Source of the DNA: a phage
Strand: one strand, 5' to 3'
Sequence record: PZ166176.1
Length of the DNA: 64,000 bases
A program made the position numbers and the translations under genes. Position 1 is the first letter of the stretch. Every line of letters begins with the position of its first letter. Below the pieces are notes generated by a model, which was not told the DNA's origin, searched no databases, and was given only the letters and a program-made list of their open reading frames with translations. Shown in pieces: positions 24,016 to 44,020 of the stretch.

Positions 24016-24488
24016 TGGCAGATTTAACTACGATCAAAGTTTCTGATCTTACACAAACAACCTCTGTATCTGATACAGATTTCTTTGTAACAGATCAGGC
24101 TGGAATAACAAAGAAGACTTCTTTGAAAGTGCTGTTGAGTGGTGCAGGGGTAACTAGAAACCGTTTAAATGCACGTGGAACAGTAACTAGCACCTTGGCA
24201 TTAGATATTAGTTCAGCAGAATATTTTTCGGCAACTTTATCTTCTGCAACATGCACAATTAGTTTTACTAATATTCCAGTAGCAACGAATGCAGTTTTAA
24301 ACTTTACTTTAGCTTTGCGTCAAGGAAGTGGCGCAAATAAAGTCGTATGGCCTTCTTCTGTAAAATGGAGTTTTGGTCGTTCCCCAGTTTTGAGTTATCG
24401 TCAAGGTGCAACAGACACTTTTGAGTTTATCAGTTATGATAATGGTGCAACTTGGACAGGTAGCTTAGTTTTAGCAGGAGTTATTTAA
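24015..24488 (+). CDS. baseplate-associated hypothetical protein (157 aa)
   Basis: ORF; ATGGCAG start overlaps the previous stop. Confidence 0.45.
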   Translation: MADLTTIKVSDLTQTTSVSDTDFFVTDQAGITKKTSLKVLLSGAGVTRNRLNARGTVTSTLALDISSAEYFSATLSSATCTISFTNIPVATNAVLNFTLALRQGSGANKVVWPSSVKWSFGRSPVLSYRQGATDTFEFISYDNGATWTGSLVLAGVI

Positions 24489-27364
24489 TGTCAAGAGTTA
24501 AGCACAATATTGACAACACGTTTCAGTTGATTGAAGGGTTGGTTCAGTTTTTGGAAAGAAATACTGGGCTTACCATAGATCCTACGGTTCAGCATTACAT
24601 TATCAACCCACAAAACGTATTGGCGAACAACAGACACTTTATTAACTGGACAGCGCAGGAAGGGCAACCAAACGGTGACGCTACTACCGAAGGTCAATCT
24701 GTGCTTATCACTGGTTTTGCTTATGCATATTTGGCTACAGGGGATAAAAAATATCTTGAATCTGCCGAGAAGTATTGGCAAGCCTATATAGATCACTTCT
24801 TCGGGGGCCAACCTATTCCTGATCCTCCGGCTAAGTATCGTCCCAACTGGATCATCAATGGTAAAGAACCACGTTTAGCACATTACCCTCTCACAGATGA
24901 TGGGTATCCTACGCACGGTGGGTTCAAAGGTAGCATGATGACTTGGATTAACGGAAGGACTGTTATTCCTAAAGGTGCACCGCATTGGGGGGAATACTTA
25001 GATAAAGCTTGGTTTGCTTTCAATGGCAATCTTGGTTGGAACTCCGTTAACGCAACAGTTTATGCAACTAATCCAGATGGTTCAACCAACTGGAAAGAAT
25101 ATGGAGATCAGTGGGACGTTGAATGGATTATAGATCGTCTAGGACGTAAAGTTGATTGGGATGGTAACATTTTATCTACAGATCACAGCTTCGCAGAATA
25201 TGGAACAGTGCAACTTAAAAATGCTTCTGTGAACGGTGATTATAAATTCAACTACGCTACATGCAACCCTGTAGAACACGGTGGATATCTGCTTAAGCGT
25301 AATGAGATGTGGCATAACCGTCCTGTAAACGTTCCGGTAGAGTTAGGTTATCAAGATAATGCTTCCGATGCTGAAACGTGGTGGTGTGATGCAAACTACT
25401 TGATGTATCAGATCACAGGAGAGAGAAAATACTGGCTTTGCTGGCAATCTTCTTTATTGTTGTGTCAAGACTACTCAAACATCGATATGTTTGATAAATT
25501 CTTCCGTAGATCTACGACAGCAATAATTCCTTTTACAGATGGTATCTCGTATGATTACTCATACCCATCTACAGCAATACCTAAATATTCTCGTGACGAA
25601 TTAGGATACACAGTAATTCGCCAAGATGTTTCAGCACAAACAACTCTAGAACAACAGGCAGTTTGGTTCAGAGTAGATCAGAATTCAAAACTGCGTATTG
25701 AGTTTCAAGGTGTAGATGATGCAGGGGAAGGTGTTCTTTTCCGTCCAGAGCTAGAATTAAGCAAAACTAAGAGTGAAACAGACACAGTGACATATCGTTG
25801 TGGCTTACCTCTTGGTGCAGCTAATATGACTAAGATGGATATACCTTTATCTAGTTTTATGCGCACCGAACCTCCTGGAGGTGGTGTATATATTATTGCT
25901 GAACCCAGAATTATTGTTGACTGGGGAAGCAATACTGTGATACAATATAAATATGCAACTGGTATTGCTGGGACAAATAGTGATCAGATAGTTTCTGCTA
26001 ATATGGATTCAGATGGTGGTTTTACTGTTGGGTTTTGGTTAACACCAACTAAAACAGCCAATTTAAAATCTATTACATATCGTTCATACGCAGATGATTT
26101 TAACATCACTATTACGGATTCCGCAGGTTGGAGATGGTGGGCCATGTTAGAAAAAACAAATTCTGCATGGGTTACTAAAGCTTTAAGTCCTGCTGATTTC
26201 AAATTAAGCACTTGGCAACCCAATCATAACGACACAGAGACAAAACCTTCGTCAATAAACCTGACTGCTGTTGATCAGATCAACATTGCATTGGATTCTG
26301 AACCTGCAAATGGCTTGACAGGGGCAATCGATTTTTATTGTGTTAACGATATCCCATCTTTGTATTCTTCAGCCGCTGGTGATGATTACACAATGTATTT
26401 CAGGGTTACAGTTTCATCTGAAAATCCTTATACAGCAAAACTTGGAGATTGTACAATACTGGACTATAAACTTGACAGTTTGAATTATACTCCAGGAATC
26501 ATTCCATTTTCCAATATTAGTGATCCTAACACAGCATTATATGACGGTTGGCGTGGTATTCCTTACCCAGGTTATCAATACCCATCCTTATATTGTTTTA
26601 AAGGGAGAGATATTGACTGGGTTCGTATGAACAACAGTATAGACTTTTTATATGATTCACAAATGTGGTTTTATAATAAGTTTGCCCCTGTAATGCCTGG
26701 GCCAATGGCACAAGCTTATGTTTGGGATCGTTGGGATGCTCATAAATATGGAAACAAAAATGAGTTCACAATGTATCATTGGAACGATAAAGCTTGGGAT
26801 GGTTATGAAGCACGAGCATTCTTCTGTGCGTGTCATACGGTATACGAACTAAAGCGACGAGGAGCCGAAGTTCCTGAAAAACTTTTAACAGTTTGTAAAA
26901 ACTGGATCAACTACCTGAAGTGGTTCCAAGATAACAACGAAGGAAGAACACCAACAATATTTTATCCCAACGGAGAAGTGGCTGCGCCTGTAGATGACTT
27001 TACAAGTCACATGTCTGCGCTCTTTATGGCGGGATGTGCTATAATGGGGATGGCTGGATATGATTCAGAAATTCCTAACATTAAAATAGTAGCAGACCGC
27101 TGTTTTGAACTTATTCAGGAAAACTATATTGTTCTTGGTCCTAATCACGTTATGAATGGTTGTTGGAGTGCTGCTCCTAGACCAGACAGTGATAACGGAG
27201 TCTTCTTTGGCTTCCACGCTGGAGAGTTGTTACGTGGTTTTGGGTTGTATGCTTTATACAAAAAACTTAATCCCCAAAATGCATTACCTGTTTTGGATTC
27301 GAGCAATATTCCTGCACTTACTGTTTTGACAATGGCAAACATTAGTGTGGACGTTACCGAGTAA
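24488..27364 (+). CDS. large tail / baseplate structural protein (958 aa)
   Basis: Long ORF within the baseplate block; no recognisable catalytic motif. Confidence 0.5.
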   Translation: MSRVKHNIDNTFQLIEGLVQFLERNTGLTIDPTVQHYIINPQNVLANNRHFINWTAQEGQPNGDATTEGQSVLITGFAYAYLATGDKKYLESAEKYWQAYIDHFFGGQPIPDPPAKYRPNWIINGKEPRLAHYPLTDDGYPTHGGFKGSMMTWINGRTVIPKGAPHWGEYLDKAWFAFNGNLGWNSVNATVYATNPDGSTNWKEYGDQWDVEWIIDRLGRKVDWDGNILSTDHSFAEYGTVQLKNASVNGDYKFNYATCNPVEHGGYLLKRNEMWHNRPVNVPVELGYQDNASDAETWWCDANYLMYQITGERKYWLCWQSSLLLCQDYSNIDMFDKFFRRSTTAIIPFTDGISYDYSYPSTAIPKYSRDELGYTVIRQDVSAQTTLEQQAVWFRVDQNSKLRIEFQGVDDAGEGVLFRPELELSKTKSETDTVTYRCGLPLGAANMTKMDIPLSSFMRTEPPGGGVYIIAEPRIIVDWGSNTVIQYKYATGIAGTNSDQIVSANMDSDGGFTVGFWLTPTKTANLKSITYRSYADDFNITITDSAGWRWWAMLEKTNSAWVTKALSPADFKLSTWQPNHNDTETKPSSINLTAVDQINIALDSEPANGLTGAIDFYCVNDIPSLYSSAAGDDYTMYFRVTVSSENPYTAKLGDCTILDYKLDSLNYTPGIIPFSNISDPNTALYDGWRGIPYPGYQYPSLYCFKGRDIDWVRMNNSIDFLYDSQMWFYNKFAPVMPGPMAQAYVWDRWDAHKYGNKNEFTMYHWNDKAWDGYEARAFFCACHTVYELKRRGAEVPEKLLTVCKNWINYLKWFQDNNEGRTPTIFYPNGEVAAPVDDFTSHMSALFMAGCAIMGMAGYDSEIPNIKIVADRCFELIQENYIVLGPNHVMNGCWSAAPRPDSDNGVFFGFHAGELLRGFGLYALYKKLNPQNALPVLDSSNIPALTVLTMANISVDVTE

Positions 27365-27372
27365 GGGGTAAA

Positions 27373-29526
27373 ATGAAACAAGCTATATTTACTGTCACGC
27401 GAGACAAGAGAGTAAATGCGAGTTCATTTAACTACACGACTGTTGACGGAACAGCAGTCGCTGGTAGAGATTATATTGCAAAATCGGGAACACTTGTGTT
27501 CCCTGATGATGCGGATTCTGCTACTATTGTGGTTGAAGTATTTGAACGACCAAAGAACTCAATAGATCTTAACTTCTCCCTCCAAGTTTCAGGGATTAGT
27601 CAAAATAACATGATGGTTGAAACGACCATTAATTGTATTATAACTACTATCCAAGAAAATACTACTCCAATAACTTGGACTACAAAAGACGTTAAAATGT
27701 TCTCTCCTATGTATTGGACAATAGATTCTCAAGCAACGGAAAGTTGTTCTATTGTATCTCATGGAGACTCTTTTACTGCAAGATTTGTAAACAGAACAAC
27801 AGCAGGTTTGGCAGGGGTTATCTGGAGCACAGTTGACAAATATGACCATAAAGGTGTTGGGTATTTGCCTCACACAGATTTAAGTTCAGAGAAACTTTGG
27901 TTTAAAATGGAAATTAGTCAAAACATGCCAGGTTTTAAAGAAGAACCTTTGGTGCCGACTTTGACTGTAACTCTCCTGGATAAAAGTGTTCATTATGTCA
28001 GTTTAGGATTCTACGCTTCAGATATTTCAGAAGATGGTAAAACAGCCACAATAAAGTTAGATTTTGGTAATATCTTTTCTGGCCCTAATAATGATATTCC
28101 TTTGGATATGAGTGCTGTAGATAATATTTTCTTCTCTTTGATTACAGCAAGGTATGAAGAAATAGAAGAGATTATACCTATTGCCAGTCAAGAGGCTTGG
28201 TTTACTTTCACTCTTCTTGAACCTACTTCTGGTTACAGTATGATGAAAGTCAGCAACCTTGTCCAGCCTGAACATGATATTCGCATGTGCACATCTTATG
28301 ATGATATGTATAACCTGACTCCAGAGAGAGTTATTTATAATACATATGCACTAGGTTATCGTGGAATGATTAACCATTACAACGGAATGTCTCACTATTA
28401 TGAGTTCTCATGGAACGGAACATCTTGGGCTTTAAATAGATCTGTTTTCCTGAATCCGGCTACAGAAGCTTGGCTTAACAGTTTCCATTCTATAGCTAAT
28501 GAAAATGGCTACACAATAATGAACTCTTTGAGTTTTGAGTTGATGAGCACAGTTTGTCCTGTTGAATGGGTCCAGCATGATTGGAACGATGCTCTTGCAG
28601 CAACAGGGTATAAGCCTCCTAGTTACGTGTTGTCTCCAACTATTGACGAAGGCATGGAATATTTGCAAAATGTTATTAACAAAATAGCATCTATTTCTCA
28701 AGCTAATAACATTCCAGTCGTAATTCAAATTGGTGAACCTTGGTGGTGGTATAATACAGCAAGTAAAATGCCTTGTATATATGATTACACTACCAAACTG
28801 GCATTCAATACAGAAACAGGCTTATTTGCACAAGACGCAGGAACAATAGATAATTATAAAACAGGAACACCATTTGACGAATACTATGCATTTTTGTCTC
28901 GTAAACTAGGGTTAAGAGTTACAAAGTTTGCAACAGACACCAGAGCAACTTATCCTGGAGCTAAAGTAACATTGCTTCCGTTCTTACCGTCAATTATTGG
29001 CAACGGTTTGATGGAGAAAGTTAACTTCCCGTCTGATTACTACATTCCTGAAGCTTTTGATTTTTACTGTTCAGAGTGTTACGACTGGCTTCTGGAAGGT
29101 AAAATGATGAAAGCATTCGATGCAATTACCATACCACATGAAAAATTAGGTTTTGAATATTCTGATATTCACTATCTTTCGGGTTTTGTTCCAGATGCTA
29201 CTCTTGCACCTTTGTATGGCTTCGATCCTGAATCAAACTACCGCACGTATCTTTGGAAAATGATTATAGGTAATATAGTGTTGAACGCCAATAAGTTCAA
29301 TGGGCTTACACAATATATATGGGCCTATCCTCAAATAATGCATGATTCCATCACGGTAGTTAATTCTCAATCCCAAGTTTTCTATATGGGTAATGTGCCT
29401 TTGAATTGTTATTTGCAAGATATCACTCTTAAACAAGCAAATGTTGAGATTGCTACCATAAGTGGAATTACATTAGCTACTAAATCTGGAGAAGATTTAG
29501 TAACAACACAAAAATTTTATATATAG
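27373..29526 (+). CDS. large tail-associated protein (717 aa)
   Basis: Long ORF following the 958-aa gene. Confidence 0.5.
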   Translation: MKQAIFTVTRDKRVNASSFNYTTVDGTAVAGRDYIAKSGTLVFPDDADSATIVVEVFERPKNSIDLNFSLQVSGISQNNMMVETTINCIITTIQENTTPITWTTKDVKMFSPMYWTIDSQATESCSIVSHGDSFTARFVNRTTAGLAGVIWSTVDKYDHKGVGYLPHTDLSSEKLWFKMEISQNMPGFKEEPLVPTLTVTLLDKSVHYVSLGFYASDISEDGKTATIKLDFGNIFSGPNNDIPLDMSAVDNIFFSLITARYEEIEEIIPIASQEAWFTFTLLEPTSGYSMMKVSNLVQPEHDIRMCTSYDDMYNLTPERVIYNTYALGYRGMINHYNGMSHYYEFSWNGTSWALNRSVFLNPATEAWLNSFHSIANENGYTIMNSLSFELMSTVCPVEWVQHDWNDALAATGYKPPSYVLSPTIDEGMEYLQNVINKIASISQANNIPVVIQIGEPWWWYNTASKMPCIYDYTTKLAFNTETGLFAQDAGTIDNYKTGTPFDEYYAFLSRKLGLRVTKFATDTRATYPGAKVTLLPFLPSIIGNGLMEKVNFPSDYYIPEAFDFYCSECYDWLLEGKMMKAFDAITIPHEKLGFEYSDIHYLSGFVPDATLAPLYGFDPESNYRTYLWKMIIGNIVLNANKFNGLTQYIWAYPQIMHDSITVVNSQSQVFYMGNVPLNCYLQDITLKQANVEIATISGITLATKSGEDLVTTQKFYI

Positions 29527-29534
29527 GAGTAAAA

Positions 29535-31481
29535 ATGTCAACTACAATTACTAATTTACCCGAAACATCAAAAGTTAATGGTTCTGATTACCTAGTTTTA
29601 GACCAATCTGATAAGACCGTTAAAAGCACAGTTTCTAACTTTCTTGCTGACACTGGGGTGGTTTTAGCCACCCAGTTGAAAGATACAAATGGAGCAGATT
29701 TAATACAATCCTCAAATGGTAATACTGTTCAGGAAGAGTTGAATAACAATCTTCTTAATGATCGTGAACAGTGGTGTCGTAGTCTTGCTGAGGCAGGGTT
29801 AACCCTTGTCAACGGTAGCTTTGAAGAAGGCGCTACATTAAATAATAAGACCGATGCTGTTTGGTATATTGCAGGCGGTCAGTGTTATTCATGGGATGGT
29901 GCACTACCTAAAGAAGTTCCAAATGGCTCAACTCCAGAAACATCTGGTGGTGTTGGTCTGGGTGCGTGGGTTAGTGTTGGTGATGCATCGTTGCGCACTG
30001 AACTTTCCTCTTTATCAGGGGCTAATCTTGTTGGGTATAGCGTTTCCATGAGATATAATGAAGAGACTGTTGGGTGGATGTTAGAAAATCTCACCGACAG
30101 AGCTTTATCATCAAGTGATTTCCCTGGAGACGATGCCGGAGAACAAATAAATAACGGTCTTGATTTTTTACGCTCCCAGAATGAGAAATATAGACAAGGG
30201 GGAACATTAAACCTACCCAGAGAAACACTGAATGTATCGACACCGATTACACTCGACAGAACTCCAAGCGGTGCGCCAGATGAAAATGATGAATATACAA
30301 TATCTGGCTCTGGAAAAGGAGGGACAGTACTGATAGCGGGTAATAGCTTCCCACCAGATAAAGCGGTTTTAACAACTAACTCTGCTAATGGTAATGCGGT
30401 TCAAGGTTTTAAATTAAAAGACTTTTCCATCAGGGGTGGCAAAAACGGACTTCGTATTGAAACCGCATCAAGAAGTATAATAGACAGCATCAAAGTTTCG
30501 GGATCAGGTTCGGACGGTATTTATGTAGGTAATAGCTGGGTCAATCTTTATAGTCAGGTGCTTGTAGATTCAAGCGGTGGTAATGGAATTACGTTCGATA
30601 ATAGTCTACAAAAAACAAGCACAACAGTACTTTCAGGATACCAGTTAAAAAACAAGGGGTCAGGTTGGGATTTTGGTTTTATGAACTATTCAGTGGCAAT
30701 TGCCACTGCTTCAGATCAGAACTCACAACATGGCTATAAAATATCAAGGTCGGAAGGATTTGTTCTTATATCTCCGGGAGCGGAAAGCAACGGGGGTGCT
30801 GGTATATTAGCTGAGGCATCAACATCTTTAGGGGAAAACAAGAGCGTCCTAATTCAAGGAGCTTTTTGCCACAATAATAATAAGATAGGTACTTACGCGA
30901 ATCTTTTATATGCGGTGAGTACTGCTAACACAATAAACCGTGTAAAAATAACAGATAGCACAGCACATTCCAGCCCTGTAGGTTCTCCAGATGTTGTTGC
31001 TGATGGGAACGAATGCGTTGTCACAATAGATAACTGCGTACTACCTAACGGCTGGGAATCCAGAAATGGTGGATATATTGACTGGGTTCATCATACCCTA
31101 TATGTACAGAAACCAGGAATCACAGGGGCAACAGCCATATGCAACTTAAGAGGAACTCAGGGGCACGGTAGAAATGAAGCTTCTGCTTCTGATAGTTTTG
31201 CTGGGGAAGTAACCATAGTAGCAAGTCCATTAGCGCCTTCAACAGCGACAAGACGACTTGCTATCTATAAACTTTTTATTTGCGTAGCAGCGGATACCGG
31301 CGTTCAATGCGAAGTGATAAAACAATTGGGTTACGTATCTGGAAATGTTCCAGGTTCGCCAAGTTTCACATGGAGCATCGGTTCATCTCATGAATTGATA
31401 GCAACCCCAATAGGGTCTACAGCCGGAACGTTCTATTTTGAAATCACAACGGATTCGCAAGTTGTAGCCCTCAAAAGATAA
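29535..31481 (+). CDS. putative tail spike / fibre protein (648 aa)
   Basis: Long ORF; Gly/Ser/Asn/Thr-rich middle region consistent with a beta-helix receptor-binding protein (inference). Confidence 0.45.
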   Translation: MSTTITNLPETSKVNGSDYLVLDQSDKTVKSTVSNFLADTGVVLATQLKDTNGADLIQSSNGNTVQEELNNNLLNDREQWCRSLAEAGLTLVNGSFEEGATLNNKTDAVWYIAGGQCYSWDGALPKEVPNGSTPETSGGVGLGAWVSVGDASLRTELSSLSGANLVGYSVSMRYNEETVGWMLENLTDRALSSSDFPGDDAGEQINNGLDFLRSQNEKYRQGGTLNLPRETLNVSTPITLDRTPSGAPDENDEYTISGSGKGGTVLIAGNSFPPDKAVLTTNSANGNAVQGFKLKDFSIRGGKNGLRIETASRSIIDSIKVSGSGSDGIYVGNSWVNLYSQVLVDSSGGNGITFDNSLQKTSTTVLSGYQLKNKGSGWDFGFMNYSVAIATASDQNSQHGYKISRSEGFVLISPGAESNGGAGILAEASTSLGENKSVLIQGAFCHNNNKIGTYANLLYAVSTANTINRVKITDSTAHSSPVGSPDVVADGNECVVTIDNCVLPNGWESRNGGYIDWVHHTLYVQKPGITGATAICNLRGTQGHGRNEASASDSFAGEVTIVASPLAPSTATRRLAIYKLFICVAADTGVQCEVIKQLGYVSGNVPGSPSFTWSIGSSHELIATPIGSTAGTFYFEITTDSQVVALKR

Positions 31482-31487
31482 AAACAA

Positions 31488-31510
31488 CCCCGCTTCGGCG
31501 GGGGGTTCTT
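31488..31510 (+). terminator. terminator-like hairpin CCCCGC-TTCG-GCGGGG (same module as at 20400)
   Basis: Identical stem-loop motif to the tape-measure terminator; downstream T tract is weak. Confidence 0.5.
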
Positions 31511-31530: not shown

Positions 31531-31842
31531 ATGAACGAGATGTTCTCACAAGGTGGTAAAGGTTCAACTGGAATCTTAACCAATAAACAAGCAGTAGCCC
31601 GTCACTTTGGAGTTAAACAATCTGAGGTTGTTTACTTCTCAGTTGGTGCACTGCTTGATGGGTACAAAGTTATCTATGATAAGGAGACGCAAAGGGCGTA
31701 TTCCCTACCTGCTGATATTGCCCCAGGTACTATTGCCATTAGTCTTAGTGCTGCCGGAGTATTAGTTCACTCTGCGGGTAATGTGGACCTTGGGGAATTA
31801 GCTGTATCTCGTGATTTAAAAAGTAATGAGAACGCACTATGA
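31531..31842 (+). CDS. hypothetical protein (103 aa)
   Basis: ORF with RBS AGAGG; sits between fibre-like genes. Confidence 0.45.
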   Translation: MNEMFSQGGKGSTGILTNKQAVARHFGVKQSEVVYFSVGALLDGYKVIYDKETQRAYSLPADIAPGTIAISLSAAGVLVHSAGNVDLGELAVSRDLKSNENAL

Positions 31843-32081
31843 GAAAATTTTTAATAGGTATGTTCTGTACATATCCTGATAATAAAGTCAGTTCTACGAA
31901 AGTCTGGAACGCTGTAGGCATGTCGGTTATGACAGGCATGTTTATCTTTTTAGGAATAGAAAAAGAAATTCCTGAATGGATGGGTTGGGCTTTTGTTTTC
32001 ATGATAACTCCTTCTCGCCTCATGAAAAATCTTATTGATTTACGCTGGGGCAGATCACAATCTACCAAAGAGGATGACTAA
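31839..32081 (+). CDS. small membrane protein with two predicted TM helices (holin-like topology)
   Basis: 80 aa; hydrophobic segments VWNAVGMSVMTGMFIFLGI and WMGWAFVFMITP followed by a charged C-terminus. Confidence 0.35.
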   Translation: MRKFLIGMFCTYPDNKVSSTKVWNAVGMSVMTGMFIFLGIEKEIPEWMGWAFVFMITPSRLMKNLIDLRWGRSQSTKEDD

Positions 32082-33568
32082 TGGACGAATATGGTTTGAC
32101 AGATGCGGGATTTGTAATCCCGACTTTTGACGATGTTTTAAACAACTACATGACAGCAGTAAAAAACACATTTGGTGCAGATGCAGCCACTTCGGAAGAT
32201 ACTGTGATCGGACAACTGTTTAGAATAATTGCATACACAGATTACACATTGTGGGAAGGTATGCAAGGTGTTTACAATACTCAAACACTGGATGGTGCAG
32301 AAGGTATTTATCTTGATGAAATCTTTTCTAAACGCGGTTTCTATCGAGCAGGGGCAGCAGCAAGTACAGGTTATGCATATGTTAAGAGTAATAACAAAGC
32401 AGCTTGGACTTATGAGCTAGGCACGGATATTTACTTCAACTCTGATAGTGATATGAACTACTATGTTAGCACACCAACTATGTTGAATGCTAAGATTGCA
32501 GCTTATCAAATCTCTCGTGCTAATGCAACTGCTACAGGTGTTCCAAATATTACTTTTTATGCACAAAGTGCGGTGGATGGAGGACTAAACAGTAAAACAC
32601 TTGCACCTGGTTCTTCTACATTTATAACCGATCTTGAAACTTTTATCAAGGCGAATTTAACAGAAGCTGATCGTAGTCTTGTATTTTCTGATTCAGGTAA
32701 CTTATCAATTGGTTTTACTTCTTTAACCAGCGATACTCCAGTGGGACTAGTAACTCCTATCAAATTTTATGCCAGTGTTCCAGTTGGAACCAAATGGAGT
32801 GAAATTCCAGTAGTTGCAGCAGAGAAAGGATACAATCCTGTTGGTGTGGAGTCTATTACAGGGATATCTTCTACCTTTACAGGTTATCTTGACAGTGGTA
32901 ACTTTTATTCATTTTCTCCTGGTCGGGATGTTGAGACAGATGCAGAATTCCGCTCTCGTTTCAATGACAACGTTGATGAAGCTAACGCAGGGACACGAGC
33001 AGCTATTGTGAAAGCTCTGTTACTTACAGATGGTGTTACTAAGGTGAAGATTTATGATAACCCTACGTTACATGATCAAGAACACGCTCCAGCTATGACT
33101 TTCCAGACTATAGTTTATGGTGGCAGTGCAGAAGAAATTGCAAATGTTATCTATAAAACCAAACCAATCAACACTTTGACACACGGAACAACTAACATAA
33201 CAGTTACAACAGAAGATGGAGGACAAGAAATTATTCGCTTCTCTCCTGGTGCTTCTGCTATGTATTCCGTAAAACTTGTTTATCAAACTGTCAACGGAAC
33301 AACTTTAAGTGGAACAGAAAAACAAAACATCGTAGAAGCTTTACAAAACCTGCAAGCTTACTTTGAGTTAGGTTCTTCAGTAACGAACGATCAAATCAAA
33401 GGTGTTATTTATGCAGCACTTGCTTTTGGACGCTTGACTTCTCTTCGTGTTTATGTTAAACTTAATACTGAGGATGACAGTAAATATACAGAGAATAATA
33501 TAGTTCCTGCTTATAATGTTGTCCCTTCTTTTGACCTTGATAACATTTCTTACGAGTATGGAGTGTAA
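32081..33568 (+). CDS. putative baseplate J-like protein (495 aa)
   Basis: Size and position (followed by a roughly 200-aa gene and a fibre gene, as in P2-type baseplate modules). Confidence 0.4.
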   Translation: MDEYGLTDAGFVIPTFDDVLNNYMTAVKNTFGADAATSEDTVIGQLFRIIAYTDYTLWEGMQGVYNTQTLDGAEGIYLDEIFSKRGFYRAGAAASTGYAYVKSNNKAAWTYELGTDIYFNSDSDMNYYVSTPTMLNAKIAAYQISRANATATGVPNITFYAQSAVDGGLNSKTLAPGSSTFITDLETFIKANLTEADRSLVFSDSGNLSIGFTSLTSDTPVGLVTPIKFYASVPVGTKWSEIPVVAAEKGYNPVGVESITGISSTFTGYLDSGNFYSFSPGRDVETDAEFRSRFNDNVDEANAGTRAAIVKALLLTDGVTKVKIYDNPTLHDQEHAPAMTFQTIVYGGSAEEIANVIYKTKPINTLTHGTTNITVTTEDGGQEIIRFSPGASAMYSVKLVYQTVNGTTLSGTEKQNIVEALQNLQAYFELGSSVTNDQIKGVIYAALAFGRLTSLRVYVKLNTEDDSKYTENNIVPAYNVVPSFDLDNISYEYGV

Positions 33569-35827: not shown

Positions 35828-36163
35828 ATGGAATTTCAAGAAGCATGGGGACTTGCAAAGGATGCAATAATCCCTTTAATCGGAGTCATCTGGTTCTTTT
35901 TCAAACAAAAAATGGATAAATTCGGCTCTGATCTTGAGGAAATGGAGGAGAAAAGTCGAGAGCTAGAGAAGAAGTTGGTCTTTGTTGAATCAACTTATGC
36001 AACTAAAGCCGAACTTACCCAGATGCTAAATCAAATTAACTCTACATTAATGGCAAATAATAACACCCTTGAGCAAAAAATTGAAAAGATTATGGACCTC
36101 AAGAATGCGACTATCCAAATGATGCTAGATGACATAGTTAAACGTACACAGAATAAGGGGTAA
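35828..36163 (+). CDS. small protein with N-terminal TM helix and coiled coil (111 aa)
   Basis: Hydrophobic AIIPLIGVIWFFF followed by a heptad-like EEMEEKSRELEKKL region. Confidence 0.45.
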   Translation: MEFQEAWGLAKDAIIPLIGVIWFFFKQKMDKFGSDLEEMEEKSRELEKKLVFVESTYATKAELTQMLNQINSTLMANNNTLEQKIEKIMDLKNATIQMMLDDIVKRTQNKG

Positions 36164-36166: not shown

Positions 36167-39100
36167 ATGGCAACATTCCCAACATATCCAGCAACGTCTC
36201 TCGAACAGGGCGTAGACCTGGTTATTTTCTCATCTAACCAACTCCATGATGTTATTAATGGAAGTGCTACAGAGAGTATTGAAACAGAATCAGGGTTGAT
36301 ACCAACCCTGAGAAAAGCCCTTGTTGACAACTTTTTCTTTAAAAGCCCATTGGATTGGGCGCAAGGCACAAACGAAACAGTTTTTAACCAACTTCGTTAT
36401 TTCCAGAATGGAGTATTGAGCGGTTATTACTATGCCCCTAACGCTACATTGGTTAACCCAATCCCTATGCAAGGGACTCCAGTAGGAGATAACAACTGGG
36501 TATTGTGGGGACTGAAGACAGAACAATTGGCAACAGAAGTCACCCCTTGGGTATATTCTGGTGCAACTGGTTATGAAACAGTAATTAGTCCTCCTTACAT
36601 CTTTGATAGTGCTATTGTTACGATCAATGGTGTTATTCAGGTTCTGGGGGAAGCTTTCCGTATAGAAGACAGTAAGATCATCTTATCTGAACCTTTGGGA
36701 CACGATCCTGCAACAGGACTGCCAAACAAGCTTTTTGCTTATATTGGTAAAATCGTAGCTTCAGCAGATACAGATCCTAATCTAGAGAACCGTCTTGTTA
36801 GTTTAGAAACAAAAACGGAAGAACTAACAGAAAGCATGGATAAAGTCCCTCTGCAAGCTATTGCTCGTAAGTATGGTTTGTTAGATGATGAGGTGGCTTA
36901 CGCAACAGCAGGTCAATCGTTAACAGGGATTAAAGCTCTGTATGATCCGGTAGCACAGTCTTCCTACACATTACCTCCTAACATCACAGGAACTTTAACA
37001 TCCTTATCTGTTTCTGGAGTAATGACTTATTCTGGAGGATCTGTAGACCTTTCTGCACTGGCTGTTGAGCGTGGACAGTTTGTTCATTTGCCTACAAGCT
37101 TTGGTAATAACGTAACTCTGACAGCTAAAAATCAGACGATTGGACGTGGTGCTGGTCGTTATCGTTGGGCTGGAAGTTTACCAAAAAGTATTTTGGCCTC
37201 TGATACATTGGAGACAAGCGGAGGATTAGGTCCAAATGCATGGGTTCTGACTAATACAGAAGGACTGTTAACCCCTCGTGGTGGAACATACAACGATCTA
37301 TTCGATGTTGTCTACTTGTCAGAATTTGCTAACAATACAACTACCTATACCACACCAGAAGCAGCTTTCCAGGCGGCACTGTTAGCAGCAAAAGCTTCGA
37401 AAAGCAAGATTCTCGATGCTTACGGTTGCGACATGACTTTCACGACAAGCTCTTTTGATATTCAAGATATCACTTTGCGTGGTGGTGTGTTCCGTGGTCA
37501 ACGCGACTATCGTGTGCAGAATGCTACAGTAGAAGGCACAACTTTCCGTAACTCTCGTGTTATGTATTGGGGTGGTGCTGTGCGCATGTTCGATTGTTTG
37601 TGGGACGGTGCTCCTCGCGCAGGTCAAGTTGGTAGCTTGGTATTCCAAGGCAACCCAATATCAGGTACTTTTGAAATTGATAATTGTACTTTTAAAAACG
37701 GGTTATATGGCATTCTTCAACAAGGAACAGGGGAACCAGTAACACGCGGTGTCTTCCGTAACCTTACCTTCATGGACATGCAAGGTGATGCAATAGAACT
37801 GAACGTCATCAATAAACATTATGACGATGGTTGTGTGATTGAGAATATTTACCTGTCTAATATCGATGGGACTAACGCTCCTATTCCTCTGTCCAACTGG
37901 GGTATCGGTATCGGTGTAGCTGGTAAAGGACCATATGGTTACGGAATCCCTGATGATCAATATTGTAAGAACATTACAATTCGTAACGTTTTTGCAAAAC
38001 GTTGTCGTCAGATTGTCCACGTAGAAGTTGGTCGTAATATCTCTATCGAAAACATTCATGGCGATCCAGATCAAACCGTATCTGTTGGGACAGGTTTGGC
38101 AACTGGCGCAGTTGTAATGTATGGAAGTAAAGACTTTACGATTGATGGTGTTTATGGAGAGCCTAAAACAGACGGTAGCACACTTGCAAGTAATATCCGT
38201 ATGATTTACTTGGAGTGGGGAACTAACGCAGTTCTGGATGAAGAGGGTAATCCGGTAGTTCCGGCACAGGGCAGACCTTCAAACCCATGCTTTAACTATT
38301 CTGTTCGTAACATTCACACCAAAACTGGGCGTGTTTTTGCGGGAGTTTCCGCTGGGCCAGGTTATGAAAACAGAGTTAGCTTTGAAAATATTCGTTGCGC
38401 TGCCTTGCAGTTGTTCGGTATAGCTTCTTGGCTTTCAATGTCTAACATCACCTGTAATATCTTCGATTGTGTTGGTCAACCTGAATCTGGTCCAGGGACA
38501 TTTTATGATGGATTCTTCCGTAGAGAAAAATCTGTTCTTGAAATGGTTAACGTAAACTGTTACCCAGATGGCAAGACGATGGTTACTGGTCGTCCACAGT
38601 GGAGCCGTTGCCGTTACTCGGATATTCATCGTGTCAACTGTAATGTTGAAGCTAATATGTATACCAATATCGCAGGTGGTATTGGAGCTATTGTAGGGAC
38701 AACGGGCAAAGTTTATTACTTAGAGCCTAATCCTAGTCGAAACATTGATGGAATGCATTTCCCAACAGGGAAAGAGTTTGACAAAGGGGATATGATAGTC
38801 AAGGCGGATAATACGTTCTTCCTTGTAACAACAAGTGGGGCATATATTCCAGATATCCCAGCTTTCGGTATTCGAGCTACACAGGCAGGAGATACCTTCC
38901 TGACACAGAACTTGACTCCTAACGGGACAGCAACAAATGCTTCTTGGTTGTATCATTACCCTCTGTCAGCAGGGACACGTATCCGTATTCCTGGCGCTGG
39001 TGTAGGTGGAGCAGATTTGGACACAGTTATTACTCGTGCACCTTATCAAGATAATGATACGTGGACTAACCCAGTTAAAATAGACATTGCAGATCCAATT

Positions 39101-39220
39101 GTAACGCCTACAAGTGCTGGAGTTAGAATTAAAACCATACCTAATGATTCCAGTAATGTTTCTGTAGGTAATACTGCGGTTATTCGCCCAACGCCAGTAG
39201 TAGATGTGCCAACAACCTAA
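36167..39220 (+). CDS. large tail spike / fibre protein (1017 aa)
   Basis: Long ORF; Gly/Asn/Thr-rich repetitive middle region consistent with a beta-helix fold (inference). Confidence 0.5.
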   Translation: MATFPTYPATSLEQGVDLVIFSSNQLHDVINGSATESIETESGLIPTLRKALVDNFFFKSPLDWAQGTNETVFNQLRYFQNGVLSGYYYAPNATLVNPIPMQGTPVGDNNWVLWGLKTEQLATEVTPWVYSGATGYETVISPPYIFDSAIVTINGVIQVLGEAFRIEDSKIILSEPLGHDPATGLPNKLFAYIGKIVASADTDPNLENRLVSLETKTEELTESMDKVPLQAIARKYGLLDDEVAYATAGQSLTGIKALYDPVAQSSYTLPPNITGTLTSLSVSGVMTYSGGSVDLSALAVERGQFVHLPTSFGNNVTLTAKNQTIGRGAGRYRWAGSLPKSILASDTLETSGGLGPNAWVLTNTEGLLTPRGGTYNDLFDVVYLSEFANNTTTYTTPEAAFQAALLAAKASKSKILDAYGCDMTFTTSSFDIQDITLRGGVFRGQRDYRVQNATVEGTTFRNSRVMYWGGAVRMFDCLWDGAPRAGQVGSLVFQGNPISGTFEIDNCTFKNGLYGILQQGTGEPVTRGVFRNLTFMDMQGDAIELNVINKHYDDGCVIENIYLSNIDGTNAPIPLSNWGIGIGVAGKGPYGYGIPDDQYCKNITIRNVFAKRCRQIVHVEVGRNISIENIHGDPDQTVSVGTGLATGAVVMYGSKDFTIDGVYGEPKTDGSTLASNIRMIYLEWGTNAVLDEEGNPVVPAQGRPSNPCFNYSVRNIHTKTGRVFAGVSAGPGYENRVSFENIRCAALQLFGIASWLSMSNITCNIFDCVGQPESGPGTFYDGFFRREKSVLEMVNVNCYPDGKTMVTGRPQWSRCRYSDIHRVNCNVEANMYTNIAGGIGAIVGTTGKVYYLEPNPSRNIDGMHFPTGKEFDKGDMIVKADNTFFLVTTSGAYIPDIPAFGIRATQAGDTFLTQNLTPNGTATNASWLYHYPLSAGTRIRIPGAGVGGADLDTVITRAPYQDNDTWTNPVKIDIADPIVTPTSAGVRIKTIPNDSSNVSVGNTAVIRPTPVVDVPTT

Positions 39221-39281
39221 TGGAATAGAGGGGGATTCCCCCTCTTCTTCCAATAGAATGGTCTAATGATAGGAGAGATAA

Positions 39282-41306
39282 ATGAATTTAACAAGACCTA
39301 ATAGTGCGATAGCCGATCTGGTAGAAGCTACTTATCGAAAACGTCGCAGCTTTGAGGCAGGTTTTACATTACGTAATTCCCGTGAAGTTTTGCTGTTAGC
39401 AGCAGAAGGGAATTATTACCAATGGAAAGGAACTTTTCCTAAAGTTGTTCCAGCAAACTCTACGCCAGCCACCACAGGTGGTATTTCTTCCCTTGCATGG
39501 CAAAGTGTTGGGACCGCTGATGATATAGCAATTATCAATGCCAAGTTTACGGCAATGCAGCAACAGATTGATGATCTGTCGGAAACAATACCTGAAGCTG
39601 GTAAATCGGCTTATCAGATCGCACTTGATAATGGTTTTGTTGGAACAGAAGCACAATGGCTTGCTTCTTTGAAAGGGGATACTGGTGCTCAACTTAATAT
39701 TAAAGGATCATTAGCAAACACTAGTGAACTACCATCCACAGGTAACGTTGCAGGGGATGGTTATATCGTAGGTGATGTAATCTACGCTTGGGATGGTTCT
39801 GTTTGGAAACTTATTTCTTCTCTTGGGCCAGAAGGTAAATCAGCTTACGAGGTATGGTTGGCAGATGGTAATACAGGATCTGTTTATGATTTTCTTACCT
39901 CTATAAAAGGTGATAAAGGTGATGTTGGTCCTACAGGGCCACAGGGAGCACCTGGTGTTAACGCCAACGGTTTTGATTATCGTGGGGATTTGCCTTCTAC
40001 AAGTAACTTACCACAACCAAACTCTGAAAACGTAAGTCAAGCTTATTCTATCAATGGTAATCTTTATGTCTCTAATGGGACAGCTTGGGTCAACATGGGT
40101 AATATTGTTGGTCCTCAAGGTCCACAAGGTGAGGCAGGTAAAGACGGTCTTGATGGAACAGATGGAGATGAAGGGAAGTCTGCATATCAAAGTTGGCTGG
40201 ATGCTGGTAATGAAGGGACAGAAGTAGATTTTATTGCCTCACTTAAAGGTCCAAAAGGAGACAAAGGTGATCAAGGAGAGCGAGGTCCACAAGGTGAACT
40301 AGGTCCACAAGGACCAGTGGGTGCAACAGGATCAGGCTTAGATATTATCGGGGTTCTGAACAGTGAAGCTGAACTTCCTCCTACCGGAGAAGTAGGTGAT
40401 GCATATAAAATTAATAATGATTTATATGTTTGGGTTCAAGATGCTACGGAATGGATGAATGTTGGCAGTCTTGGAGGAACATCAATTACAGCTAAAGGTC
40501 ATGTTCCGAACAGTGAAGCTCTCCCTGTTTATAATAACTATGGCGATGCCTACTTAACTGAAGACACTAGTAATCTTTACATCTATACCTACGATCAAGA
40601 CACCAATTCCGCATCTTTTGTTGACATGGGAAGTATTAAAGGCGACAAAGGTGAAAAAGGGGATAAAGGAGATAAGGGTGATCCTGGAACAAACGGAACC
40701 AACGGTACTGATGGGACCAACGGTAAGGACGGCGCACAGTGGTTTGTAGCAACAACTAATCCAGTCGCAGGAGACGGTGTTATCAATGATTACGCCTTCA
40801 ATACTACCACTGGAGCAGTGTTCAAGAAAACAGATTCTTCTACTTGGACACTTATAGGAACTCTTCCTAGTATACCAGAAGCACCTCAAGACGGCTTGAC
40901 GTATGGTCGTTCTGATGGGAACTGGATTGAAATATCAGGATCAGATCCTACGGAAGCTATAACACCAACTAGAGTTACAGCAGGTTTCATGGAACTTGAA
41001 ACAACTACTGCCAACTCTGGAGCATCTTGGACCCCTTCTGGAACTTCCAATATGTATGTTGTTACAGTAACTGACGCTCTGACAGTTGGAGCATGGCCTG
41101 GTGTCACTGGCTCTACAAAGCCTAAAGCGTTTTCAGCAATGATTTATTTGATTCAAGATACAACGGGACACACGGTTACACTAGATGCGTCTTATGGAGC
41201 ACTGAATGATACAGAAATAGCAACTACTGCTAACGCAGTAACAATTTTGCAATTAACGTATCCTGGTGTGGGTAATGTCGTGGACATGGTTGTTGTAACA
41301 CGATAA
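39282..41306 (+). CDS. collagen-like tail fibre protein (674 aa)
   Basis: Several Gly-X-Y runs (GDKGDVGPTGPQGAPG, GPQGPQGEAGKDGLDGTDGDEG, GDKGEKGDKGDKGDPGTNGTNGTDGTNGKDG) and a threefold repeat GKSAYxxWLxxGNxGxxxDFxxSLKGxKGD. Confidence 0.6.
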   Translation: MNLTRPNSAIADLVEATYRKRRSFEAGFTLRNSREVLLLAAEGNYYQWKGTFPKVVPANSTPATTGGISSLAWQSVGTADDIAIINAKFTAMQQQIDDLSETIPEAGKSAYQIALDNGFVGTEAQWLASLKGDTGAQLNIKGSLANTSELPSTGNVAGDGYIVGDVIYAWDGSVWKLISSLGPEGKSAYEVWLADGNTGSVYDFLTSIKGDKGDVGPTGPQGAPGVNANGFDYRGDLPSTSNLPQPNSENVSQAYSINGNLYVSNGTAWVNMGNIVGPQGPQGEAGKDGLDGTDGDEGKSAYQSWLDAGNEGTEVDFIASLKGPKGDKGDQGERGPQGELGPQGPVGATGSGLDIIGVLNSEAELPPTGEVGDAYKINNDLYVWVQDATEWMNVGSLGGTSITAKGHVPNSEALPVYNNYGDAYLTEDTSNLYIYTYDQDTNSASFVDMGSIKGDKGEKGDKGDKGDPGTNGTNGTDGTNGKDGAQWFVATTNPVAGDGVINDYAFNTTTGAVFKKTDSSTWTLIGTLPSIPEAPQDGLTYGRSDGNWIEISGSDPTEAITPTRVTAGFMELETTTANSGASWTPSGTSNMYVVTVTDALTVGAWPGVTGSTKPKAFSAMIYLIQDTTGHTVTLDASYGALNDTEIATTANAVTILQLTYPGVGNVVDMVVVTR

Positions 41307-41311
41307 CAGAA

Positions 41312-41337
41312 GCCCCGAAAGGGGCTTTCTTTTTATG
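41312..41337 (+). terminator. rho-independent terminator (AGCCCC-GAAA-GGGGCT plus TTCTTTTTAT)
   Basis: GNRA-type tetraloop hairpin followed by a T-run. Confidence 0.8.
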
Positions 41338-41347
41338 GAGGGTTTAA

Positions 41348-44020
41348 ATGTTTCCAATTCCAATATTTACTATTATGACCAGCACTGGTGTCGTTCCTCT
41401 GCCAGCAGGTATTGTTAAAAAAGTAATTACTTTAGATTACCCAGATAATGCTGGTAATTCTAACAGCAGTTTAGCAATTTTGCTTAATGATGGTAGATTG
41501 TTTACTCAAGGCGCAAACCTCTTTGGTGAGATTGCAGATGGAACTCGTAGTGCACGATTCAATAATTTCCACTTAGCTTCTACTGTAGTAGCGGATGTGT
41601 TTACCGCAGATCGTTGTTTTGTTATTAAAACTAACAGTGGGGGATGGCAATATTCAGGATTGACAGCAGGGTTAGTAGGATCTATAGCAGCAGGTGGTAC
41701 GGATGCATGTGTAACTACTTGGACCAGCTTTCCATCTGTAATAACAGGGACTATCTCTTTAGCCAATCTTAAAGAGGTTAAGGGAGGATATAACAACACT
41801 CTCTGGTTAATGAATAGTGGTGTTCTTTATGGATCGGGTCAAAACACAGTAGGTAGTTTAGGTGCAAGCACTACTAACGAAGTTTCTACTCCTCGTCAGA
41901 TAACAAGTTCAGCAGTTGCTTTTGATGCAGGTTACAACCAATGCTCTTATGTCAACAATGTGGGAACCTTGCGTGTTTGTGGAGCTAGTAAAGGTTTAGC
42001 AGGTAATAATAACACAACAACAGCTTTTGTCAATGCCAAGATATCCGCTACTGAAACAGTGTATGTCAAAGATTACATCAATACAGTTTCCCAGACAATA
42101 GTTGTAGGAGATACCTCCGGTGGCACGGGTACAGTAAACTACTTATATGTCAGGTCTAATACAGAAACAACCTACACTAAACTGGATACCTTTGCAGCAG
42201 GTTTCTCAACATGGAAATTTCCACCAAGCCGCCACTCTTTTTTCGTTGGGATCAACAATTCCTTGTGGGCTATTGGTAAGAACTACACTGCAAACTTAGG
42301 TTTGGGGTATGATTCTGCGAGCGGAGATCCACTCCAAGTGGGAAAACCAGTTAAACCTGAAGGAGTGGGTTCTTGGGATATAAACAAGCTCACAAGCGTT
42401 CATACGCTGAATATGGATATTACTAACCAATTAGGTTATCAAGGAACCTTTTTCGTTTATAACGGGGATATGTATTATTCCGGTATTTGGAAAGATGGGA
42501 AAGCCTCGTATCTGTTCAACAGTGGTCTAAATTATAATAAATTCACACCGATAGCAAGCTCTGTGATTACGGGTGATATTCTGGCAACTGGTTTAACTAC
42601 AGATTCTTTAGGAATTTGTATTGTAGGTGGAACTAAACAGTTGACACATTCTGTTAGCCCAGAAGGAGGTAAACTTTTCAATATTAAATACACTTCTTCT
42701 GCCCCTGCAAACATGACAATATCATCCACTGGTTTAATGACTTTCCATGCAGAAGGTGGTTTTGATGCAGGTATGACAGCCTTAAACGCTGAAGGAACAA
42801 CTTTATCAGATACCTCTGGAGGATATGCTTCAACATTGAGTGTTTACACCCCTAGCTTATCTGCGATGGATGTAGGAACAACACAAACAATGGTAGCAGA
42901 AATAACGCCAACAGGAGCAGCAAGCTTACCTGGTATGGTTGTTGAGTATACAACTACAGATCCTAATGTTGCTACAGTAGATCCTACAACTGGTGTAATA
43001 ACTGGTGTTGGTGATGGTGGTTGTAGAATTGGTTGCACAGCTACGTATCAAGGTGTTGTTACCGCTTCTGATAGTTCTTATTTAACGGTGAACGCTGTTG
43101 CGGGAAAGGAGTTAGCTCCATCTCCGAGTAGTAGTTTAACGGTTCTAAACGGATATTTCAACCACTCGGCAGATGGGGCAATTACGTTCCCAATTTTATC
43201 GGGTACTGTCACACCAGCTAACTTTGTAGTTAAGGTGGATGACGTTGTAATACCTTCAAATAAAGTAATATTTAGAAATAAAGCTTTCTCTACAGTGGAT
43301 AGTTATCCAGCAGGAGAATATAGACTGGCTATTGAATTTGCAAGTGCTTCAGTAGTGAATAGTGTTGATGTGTCTATGGAAGCAAATCCAGATCTTTTAG
43401 AATTATGGGGCGGCAACAGAATTGGTTATTCTACAAGCCCAGCCTCACAATTCTTAAAAGGTTGTGCTAACTTAAGACGAATAACTTCTGATTGTTTTAG
43501 TAACACATCTTACACCGGAACATCTATAAGTGGTATCTTCTCTGGCTGTACAAGTTTGACAGCTATCCCTGAAGGATTATTCAGTGATGCTTTATTTCCT
43601 TCAATGACAACAATGTCAAGCACGTTTGAAGGTTGTACATCTTTAACATCTATTCCTTCAGATTTATTTAAGAATCTATCAAAAGTTACAAGATATTCTT
43701 ACACCTTTAAAGATTGCACCTCTCTTGCAGAAGTTCCAGCAGGAATGTTTGATAATATTCCAACGAAAGTGACCTCTTTAACAGCTACATTCCAAGGTTG
43801 TTTAGCACTTACAGATTTTAATAAAATCTTTAATGACAACCCAGGGTTAACGGTTTGTGGTCAACGTGGAGCATTATCTTCTTTCTTTAGTGGATGCACA
43901 AATCTTACAGGAACAGGAGTAACATTAACAAGCACATTAGGTGGAGCAGCTAATAGTTACCTATTCAGGTATTGCACAAAACTTTCTGATTATAACAATA
44001 TTCCTTCGGGTTATAAATAA
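41348..44020 (+). CDS. tail fibre / adhesin with Ig-like domain and C-terminal leucine-rich repeats (890 aa)
   Basis: Ig-like segment (TTTDPNVATVDPTTGVITGVGDGG) and repeated CTSLTxIPxxLF units resembling BspA-type leucine-rich repeats. Confidence 0.5.
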   Translation: MFPIPIFTIMTSTGVVPLPAGIVKKVITLDYPDNAGNSNSSLAILLNDGRLFTQGANLFGEIADGTRSARFNNFHLASTVVADVFTADRCFVIKTNSGGWQYSGLTAGLVGSIAAGGTDACVTTWTSFPSVITGTISLANLKEVKGGYNNTLWLMNSGVLYGSGQNTVGSLGASTTNEVSTPRQITSSAVAFDAGYNQCSYVNNVGTLRVCGASKGLAGNNNTTTAFVNAKISATETVYVKDYINTVSQTIVVGDTSGGTGTVNYLYVRSNTETTYTKLDTFAAGFSTWKFPPSRHSFFVGINNSLWAIGKNYTANLGLGYDSASGDPLQVGKPVKPEGVGSWDINKLTSVHTLNMDITNQLGYQGTFFVYNGDMYYSGIWKDGKASYLFNSGLNYNKFTPIASSVITGDILATGLTTDSLGICIVGGTKQLTHSVSPEGGKLFNIKYTSSAPANMTISSTGLMTFHAEGGFDAGMTALNAEGTTLSDTSGGYASTLSVYTPSLSAMDVGTTQTMVAEITPTGAASLPGMVVEYTTTDPNVATVDPTTGVITGVGDGGCRIGCTATYQGVVTASDSSYLTVNAVAGKELAPSPSSSLTVLNGYFNHSADGAITFPILSGTVTPANFVVKVDDVVIPSNKVIFRNKAFSTVDSYPAGEYRLAIEFASASVVNSVDVSMEANPDLLELWGGNRIGYSTSPASQFLKGCANLRRITSDCFSNTSYTGTSISGIFSGCTSLTAIPEGLFSDALFPSMTTMSSTFEGCTSLTSIPSDLFKNLSKVTRYSYTFKDCTSLAEVPAGMFDNIPTKVTSLTATFQGCLALTDFNKIFNDNPGLTVCGQRGALSSFFSGCTNLTGTGVTLTSTLGGAANSYLFRYCTKLSDYNNIPSGYK

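Follow-up and report, generated by a model that had tools for sequence, protein, structure and literature searches.

Does the long block of tail genes in phage sequence record PZ166176.1 encode seven independent adhesins, or a smaller set of receptor-binding proteins carried by conserved baseplate components? The stretch analysed (64,000 nucleotides, referred to here as the window) contains seven large open reading frames (ORFs) of 958, 717, 648, 353, 1017, 674 and 890 aa between positions 24488 and 44020. The original prediction, made from the letters alone, read them as a multi-adhesin tail of at least seven fibres and spikes, and the ORFs themselves were confirmed: all seven are transcribed rightwards (the + strand, as are all the genes described below), all begin with ATG, and they are closely packed over 19.5 kb in total. 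We conclude that, with a probability of about 85%, this gene block is a Phapecoctavirus (subfamily Stephanstirmvirinae; phAPEC8-like Escherichia coli myovirus) module for the distal baseplate and receptor binding, orthologous gene by gene to gp140-gp152 of phage phi92. Orthology, domain content, folds, conservation versus variability and breakpoints were established directly; what we infer is the order of protein on protein, the enzymatic activities and the receptors.

Relationships and gene order

A DNA comparison of the 19.5-kb region with a collection of 50,697 phage records returned 231 matching records, and the best 20 of these are all phAPEC8-like phages (e.g. dw-ec, EF1-1, DE16 and ESCO5) with Escherichia or Shigella as the hosts on record, 96.6-98.7% DNA identity and 88-92% of the region covered. 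The two records fetched whole, ESCO5 and Ro121c4YLVW, are classified as Phapecoctavirus, and the gene order and gene sizes of ESCO5 are the same as those of the window. DNA identity and gene order, followed from the tape measure gene to the last tail gene, place the window in Phapecoctavirus and its adsorption module in the phi92 type. ESCO5, EF1-1, dw-ec and DE16 have the same genes in the same order and share with the window the leucine-rich repeat (LRR) allele of the last gene. By protein BLAST against ESCO5, 11 of the 12 genes from the 958-aa to the 890-aa gene are 96-100% identical, the exception being the 648-aa tailspike.

Gene order is also shared with phi92 (a Justusliebigvirus) over gp135-gp152, with synteny throughout gp140-gp153, and the conserved genes are 60-87% identical by protein BLAST, including the orthologues of gp140, 141, 142, 145, 146, 147, 149, 150 and 151. 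The two phages have the anchor of gp143 (aa 1-54) in common, and both encode a colanidase spike and a short fibre with its chaperone. The block is preceded by a small fibre-like protein gene (24015-24488; 157 aa), whose product is the orthologue of gp140 (84% amino acid identity; phrog_9017 'tail fiber protein', E 1.9e-68). In the region, ORFs of 106-152 aa on the minus strand were dismissed because each lies wholly within a strongly supported plus-strand gene. The labels 'Campylobacter phage' (A150, B15) and 'Pseudomonas phage PsgM04F', under which several Phapecoctavirus-like records of near-identical sequence were submitted, look doubtful as host names because the genomes are so near to those of E. 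coli phages.

The gp141- and gp142-like pair

The 958-aa protein (24488-27364) is a conserved orthologue of phi92 gp141, and its predicted structure is compact and globular: an (α/α)6 glycosidase-like barrel, a carbohydrate-enzyme fold, interrupted by two beta-sandwich insertions and with no fibre in the model. About 95 residues are invariant in the family, among them E68 (at least 90% conserved) and D294/E296. The 717-aa protein (27373-29526) is the orthologue of gp142 (77% identity) and a homologue of N4 gp64, and combines Calx-beta, NCTSP_N and TIM-barrel domains; the Pfam scores are 266.2 bits for PF23845, 59.9 bits for PF23844 (cut-off 27) and 42.2 bits for Calx-beta, which place it in the NCTSP_N and TIM-barrel_NCTSP families. 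It matches N4 Gp64 in the PDB (9lc0_M, E 7.5e-30) and, over a 70-aa stretch, N4 gp65 (E 1.4e-12). The gp64 homology was drawn attention to by the BASEL authors, who proposed a deacetylase-like domain directed at enterobacterial common antigen (ECA). In the N4 sheath, gp64 accompanies the receptor-binding protein gp65 as its minor partner, and no activity is reported for gp64 (PMC13434306). The window differs from N4 in belonging to a myovirus, in the additional Calx-beta domain of the 717-aa protein, and in the partner of that protein, which is the 958-aa barrel protein and not a gp65 homologue. Because the phage is a myovirus with a true contractile sheath, 'non-contractile tail sheath', as used in the annotation of relatives, is a transferred name for the 717-aa protein and not a function; it is misleading, as is 'long tail fiber protein', the name that one paper gives to the 958-aa protein (PMC12695924).

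Natural fusions connect the 958-aa protein with its neighbours. In one homologue (P0209) a P2-gpI-type wedge domain (Tail_P2_I) precedes a gp141-like body; in another (P0218) the gp141-like body is continued by the NCTSP_N and TIM-barrel domains that the adjoining gene encodes; and a third (P0212) is a gp141-like protein with a different distal extension (Gly_rich_2).

The pair bears directly on whether the seven ORFs could be separate fibres or spikes, each an independent adhesin in a seven-fold branched apparatus. All seven are large proteins within the tail module, and several are labelled 'tail fiber protein' by annotation pipelines, with the 958-aa product called a long fibre in the paper cited above. 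However, the model of the 958-aa protein shows a compact barrel plus beta-sandwiches and the 717-aa protein is a TIM-barrel protein, neither of them a fibre; the two are joined in a single chain in some phages; and since both keep 43-55% identity across distant hosts, they are too conserved to be determinants of specificity. Cryo-electron microscopy (cryo-EM) of phi92 shows three fibre sets rather than seven. A seven-fold array of adhesins is thus very improbable: the 958-aa and 717-aa proteins and the 890-aa protein with its propeller, immunoglobulin-like (Ig-like) and LRR domains fall outside the fibres and spikes, and the remaining ORFs fall within them. The wider claim of a branched, broad-host-range adsorption apparatus fares better, as a multi-component apparatus matches the literature on this phage group. 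Baseplate scaffolds or enzymes, the outcome that had been named as speaking against a multi-adhesin tail, partly describe the 958-aa and 717-aa proteins, and the overall reading survives because enzyme-bearing scaffold proteins belong to the adsorption apparatus in these phages.

We propose the 958-aa protein as a proximal arm or scaffold, possibly an enzyme. Alternatively, it and the 717-aa protein might be active polysaccharide-modifying enzymes, a glycoside hydrolase family 8 (GH8)-like inverting glycosidase and a deacetylase-like TIM barrel, acting on a conserved glycan such as ECA, the lipopolysaccharide (LPS) core or a matrix of the poly-N-acetylglucosamine (PNAG)/cellulose type, with any scaffold role secondary. 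In a 2017 review that cites the 2012 phi92 paper, gp141 and gp142 already appear as glycosidases (PMC5380687). Two segments of the 958-aa protein (aa 64-70 and 291-298; the conserved motifs NGDATTEGQS and NASDAETW) resemble the two signature motifs of GH8 enzymes, which in E. coli BcsZ read TTSEGQS and SASDGDVW; TTEGQS and NASDAE pair with TTSEGQS and SASDGD in the most confident hhalign columns of an alignment that overall is not significant, and the spacing of the motifs is comparable to that in BcsZ once the first beta insertion is left out. We treat this apparent resemblance as a lead only. No sequence method gave a significant GH family match for the protein: GH76 reached 18.5 bits on a fragment against a Pfam cut-off of 25.9, a profile search of PDB sequences returned only GH76 (E 0.044), and hhalign comparisons of the family with BcsZ, of a spliced alignment with BcsZ, and with a 116-sequence BcsZ alignment gave E-values of 0.035-0.27, none significant, the last of these alignments (BcsZ and 115 orthologues, all at least 60% identical) being shallow as a GH8 profile. 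The position of the catalytic base could not be located, and structural work describes N4 gp64 as a subunit of the sheath. A primarily enzymatic pair is possible, at somewhat less than an even chance.

The variable tailspike and an orphan anchor

The 648-aa tailspike gene (29535-31481) occupies the position of the phi92 gp143 endosialidase. Residues 1-54 of its product are 94% identical to gp143 and 93% identical to the ESCO5 endosialidase, and the remainder is unrelated to gp143; a Tail_spike_N domain at aa 92-150 (PF18668; 73.7 bits, cut-off 25), with PDB matches to N-terminal regions of the CBA120 tailspike protein (TSP) type, is followed by a rare beta-helix head. No near-DNA match spans the head, and only one of the phage records (LHE287, 65% identity) covers at least 80% of the protein. 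The head is where other Phapecoctavirus isolates differ from the window, and no phage record exceeds 65% identity to it; at the same position ESCO5 has a 921-aa endosialidase and EF1-1 a 739-aa spike. The gene is the hypervariable specificity cassette noted by others at this position. A GC-rich hairpin (31488-31503) lies directly after it.

The next ORF (31531-31842; 103 aa) is an orphan tailspike N-terminal anchor (phrog_7992, E 8.3e-62; phrog_18484, positions 1-95 of 770). It is 86% identical to the N-terminus of CBA120 TSP1 (orf210) and 45% identical to residues 230-302 of the colanidase of ESCO5, a protein that shares 99.4% identity with the 1017-aa protein of the window. The short ORF is kept in EF1-1, dw-ec and PD114 and is missing from ESCO5; it could be left over from a second tailspike that was lost, or serve as a small adaptor or docking-site plug.

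The branched tailspikes of the Ackermannviridae (CBA120 TSP1-4) and of G7C-like podoviruses offer a close parallel, with modular exchange of heads behind conserved anchors; three window proteins have PF18668 anchors and the orphan ORF is TSP1-like. The scaffold differs, consisting here of a P2/Mu-type wedge and the gp141/gp142 pair and not of a TSP4/TSP2 hub; no XD docking domains of the TSP2 or TSP4 type turned up, in analyses that included no search aimed at them.

The 890-aa propeller-Ig-LRR protein

The last gene of the block encodes a conserved part (41348-43099), with a putative RCC1-like propeller over aa ~1-400 followed by Ig-like domains at aa 411-584, and an exchangeable tip (aa 585-890; 43100-44020) consisting of a beta-sandwich and then seven LRR-type repeats. 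The propeller had been omitted from the original prediction, as had the two wedge proteins, the fibre chaperone, the small membrane protein and the lipoprotein. RCC1 scores 23.8 bits on the whole protein (cut-off 21.7), with no single stretch reaching the cut-off, and WD40_RLD scores 42.9 against 150; in the PDB the N-terminus matches RPGR, UVR8 and HERC proteins (E 3e-4 to 1e-2). Membership of the Big_2 family (PF02368) is supported at aa 505-565 by 36.5 bits (cut-off 22.8), and aa 411-584 are 66% identical to phi92 gp152. The predicted LRRs behind an Ig-like domain are present as seven C-x-x-L repeats with a period of 26-32 aa (aa 706-876; consensus F..C.sLtsIP..LF). The tip folds as an LRR solenoid. 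Among homologues of the final 306 aa, PF13306/PF03382 proteins are abundant, and one of these bears the name 'BspA family LRR surface protein'. Repeat consensus, period and solenoid fold are thus shared with the BspA-family and DUF285 (PARCEL) LRR surface proteins of bacteria, from which the window tip differs in staying under the Pfam and NCBIfam cut-offs (DUF285, 15.1 bits against 25; PARCEL repeat TIGR02167, 18.3 against 30) and in its location at the C-terminus of a phage tail-module protein and not in a bacterial surface protein.

The boundary of the tip is sharp. Residues 1-584 are 98% identical across all Phapecoctavirus, the phAPEC8-type allele included, and from aa 584 similarity to the phAPEC8/Ro121c4YLVW allele vanishes. 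The two tip alleles are about equally frequent (the LRR allele in 36 phage records, the other in about 39), and relatives of the alternative allele, 63% identical, occur in phage alia and phages related to it; the allele is apparently gp153-like, going by those relatives rather than by an alignment to gp153. In phi92, a 202-aa gp152 (Ig only) and a separate 295-aa gp153 stand where the window has a single 890-aa protein with the added putative RCC1-like propeller and LRR tip.

Homologues of the LRR domain occur in 57 of the 50,697 phage records, 36 of them phAPEC8-like (Phapecoctavirus/'Wecvirus') and 16 from Klebsiella phages, so that to call such repeats unusual for a phage receptor-binding protein is fair but not absolute. 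The 16 Klebsiella records are mostly genomes of ~37 kb, one of which is classified as P2-like Peduoviridae and has the repeats on a gpI-like baseplate protein. The P2-like temperate Klebsiella phage ST16-OXA48phi5.4 (L009 1547-4573) encodes a 1008-aa 'tail protein I' with nine LRR-like matches to the window tip, which suggests that baseplate proteins with LRR tips are a recurrent feature of unrelated phages. In the literature we found no coliphage tail protein described as binding through an LRR solenoid tip.

Two further arrangements were seen in Logan assemblies. In a more distant relative (SRR17660019, a 128-kb contig; L005 3929-6076), a 216-aa protein is followed by a 494-aa Big_2 and LRR protein with a 56%-identical tip, a third arrangement. 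A Phapecoctavirus contig (SRR10359460; L004 8705-9895) has one 396-aa in-frame fusion in place of the 674-aa and 890-aa proteins, in which the Tail_spike_N anchor of the fibre (aa 1-74) runs into the LRR tip of the 890-aa protein (aa ~567-890). The fusion reflects either a 3.5-kb deletion in a natural mutant or faulty assembly; because a Logan assembly artefact is possible, it was rejected as proof of a portable tip.

We tentatively suggest, with the odds leaning against it, that the 890-aa protein is truly a receptor-binding arm, non-fibrous and confined to Phapecoctavirus and 'Wecvirus', in which the swappable tip (LRR solenoid or gp153-like) would bind a defined host surface molecule and act as a two-state host-range switch. 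It could match an unassigned appendage density in this phage group, but not fibre II of phi92, because justusliebigviruses are without the long form ('TfpM1'; PMC12695924). An unlikely alternative is that it decorates the tail tube, sheath or head as an accessory adhesin, in the manner of Hoc or the C-terminal domain of lambda gpV, and gives weak reversible adherence to surfaces, mucus or biofilm matrix. Consistent with decoration, the Ig-like part is homologous to phi92 gp152, annotated on record as 'lambda protein V like fold'; in PHROG the protein matches entries such as 'major tail protein' or 'structural protein with Ig domain'; justusliebigviruses infect without the long form; and a terminator-like hairpin sets the gene apart from the fibre genes. 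Yet the gene stands at the end of the fibre block and its tip is swapped cassette-wise at a sharp breakpoint, as happens in genuine receptor-binding proteins, similar LRR repeats are found on the gpI-type baseplate protein of a P2-like Klebsiella phage, and the same tip is attached to a Tail_spike_N anchor in one assembly.

The colanidase spike and the collagen-like fibre

Two further large genes encode a spike and a fibre with Tail_spike_N anchors. The 1017-aa protein (36167-39220) is, by homology to phi92 gp150, predicted to be a colanidase-type tailspike. Homology to the gp150-type catalytic beta-helix is seen in the PDB match to 6e0v ('Phi92 gp150', E 1.1e-78 over aa 426-1000), with phrog_6117 'colanic acid degradation' at E 1.7e-282 and PF18668 at 37.6 bits (cut-off 25); NCBIfam gave a weak WcaM-like match and otherwise nothing decisive. 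Residues 226-399 match the N-terminal regions of CBA120 TSPs, and this extra TSP-type anchor insert (aa ~216-400) distinguishes the window colanidase from that of phi92.

The 674-aa protein (39282-41306) is a collagen-like tail fibre and the orthologue of gp151 (60% identity), with Tail_spike_N at aa 12-77 (PF18668, 70.5 bits; cut-off 25). The interrupted Gly-X-Y tracts and threefold repeat that had been noticed in it are both borne out. Four tracts of 6, 8, 10 and 11 triplets lie at aa 210-227, 277-300, 323-352 and 454-486 (nt 39909-39962, 40110-40181, 40248-40337 and 40641-40739), and the total of 35 triplets compares with an average of 4.2, and at most 19, in the shuffled sequence; Pfam Collagen (PF01391) scores 46.2 bits (cut-off 27.2). 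A 'GKSAY...LKG' repeat of ~30 aa is present in three copies (starting at aa 107, 185 and 298) and an 'LP..G..GD.Y' knob motif of ~45 aa in four, and the C-terminus matches the tail fibre of phage phiTE (9cuy_g).

Wedge, short fibre and small accessory genes

Between the orphan anchor and the colanidase gene are six genes that follow the phi92 order. A small membrane protein (31839-32081; 80 aa; phrog_1322 'membrane protein', E 1.8e-27) at the gp144 position is followed by two baseplate wedge proteins, one of the P2 gpJ/phi92 gp145 type (32081-33568; 495 aa; Baseplate_J 33.2 bits, 80% identity to gp145), gp145 being included in the phi92 wedge model (PMC13450770), and one corresponding to gp146 (33571-34200; 209 aa; 87% identity; phrog_4056, E 6.8e-81). 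The 353-aa short tail fibre (34210-35271) is 75% identical over aa 1-267 to gp147, which was placed as fibre III of phi92 by cryo-EM fitting (PMC13450770), and matches the 'Short tail fiber' 9cuy_c in the PDB (E 4.8e-23). Its neighbours are a 181-aa tail fibre assembly chaperone (35273-35818; Caudo_TAP 50.4 bits; phrog_136, E 1.1e-41), only 23% identical to that of phi92, and a 111-aa lipoprotein (35828-36163; 76% identity to gp149; phrog_15210, E 4.3e-70).

Hairpins and promoters

The terminator-like hairpin between the 674-aa and 890-aa genes (41309-41328, + strand) has an 8-bp stem with five GC pairs followed by a T-run, and is a consensus match only. A second, bidirectional hairpin (44022-44045, present on both strands) marks off the end of the tail module from the convergent replication genes, and near it gene orientation switches and the GC-skew changes sign. 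Together with the hairpin behind the tailspike gene, these make three GC-rich hairpins, all at module or cassette boundaries. A promoter scan of the region found 50 sites against 51.2 in shuffled sequence, no excess, and we therefore make no promoter claims.

A proposed model of the adsorption apparatus

In the cryo-EM structure of phi92, three fibre sets are arranged on a P2/Mu-type gp145/gp146 wedge, with gp147 pointing downward (fibre III) and gp143 distal on the L-shaped arm of fibre I (PMC13450770). In our proposed model, the 495-aa and 209-aa wedge proteins of the window would form the baseplate periphery, and the 353-aa short fibre, with its chaperone, would sit below the wedge and make the final irreversible contact with the LPS core. 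The globular 958-aa and 717-aa pair would bear the exchangeable tailspike, which is the 648-aa protein in the window and an endosialidase in phi92 and ESCO5, and which would dock through its conserved first ~54 residues. This chain, from wedge to 958-aa protein to 717-aa protein to variable tailspike, is proposed because of the gene order, the fusions and the conserved 54-residue anchor. The 1017-aa colanidase spike and the 674-aa collagen-like fibre would be additional arms, both with Tail_spike_N anchors, and the last gene would supply a non-fibrous adhesin of RCC1-like propeller, Ig-like domains and a swappable tip, here an LRR solenoid. Host range would be set mainly by cassette exchange at two sites, the head of the 648-aa tailspike and the tip of the 890-aa protein (aa 585-890).

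Several observations count against this assignment of roles. Pfam, used to seek a CAZy family for the 958-aa protein, was empty for the whole protein, three fragments and five insertion-free constructs; hhalign of its family alignment against E. coli BcsZ (E 0.035) has a probability of 1.5% and is not significant; and the protein could be a catalytically dead scaffold. For the tip of the last protein, LRR_5 (PF13306) reaches 19.0 bits (E 0.0013) against a cut-off of 27.7. The 2026 phi92 cryo-EM paper leaves fibre II and the fibre I arm unassigned, and gp141, gp142 and gp152 go unmentioned in it (PMC13450770); the positions in the particle of the 958-, 717- and 890-aa proteins are ones that we infer. 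The evidence that the encoded proteins belong to the virion is indirect and comes from phi92 cryo-EM for gp145, gp146 and gp147 and from virion mass spectrometry of rV5 for distant relatives; a Phapecoctavirus paper billed as 'proteomics' (PMC10698182) contains no mass spectrometry of virions.

Implications

The multi-adhesin character of this tail is already known for the phAPEC8/phi92 group, and the window is a near-copy of known isolates. phi92 has been described as having a 'multivalent adsorption apparatus' and as a 'Swiss army knife' of nanometre size, and Phapecoctavirus AV125 and AV126 as having a broad host range (PMC8594841, PMC10844046, PMC13450770, PMC5380687), with multiple fibres and broad host range linked in two of these (PMC8594841, PMC10844046); the multivalent apparatus of phi92 goes back in the literature to 2012. 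We found no paper mentioning LRR or collagen features in these proteins, and the domain notes, the cassette boundary at aa 584, the rare tailspike head and the orphan anchor are for this reason minor additions, short of a new kind of system.

As a whole the finding is of little importance, being the published multi-receptor tail of phi92 and phAPEC8 found again in a near-identical isolate. Its practical value lies in details that bear on host-range engineering of broad-range phages popular in therapy, in particular the two clean cassette boundaries, one after aa ~54-170 of the tailspike and the other at aa 584 of the 890-aa protein. For the phage group more widely, the conserved gp141/gp142 pair is a candidate for the unassigned fibre I arm of phi92.

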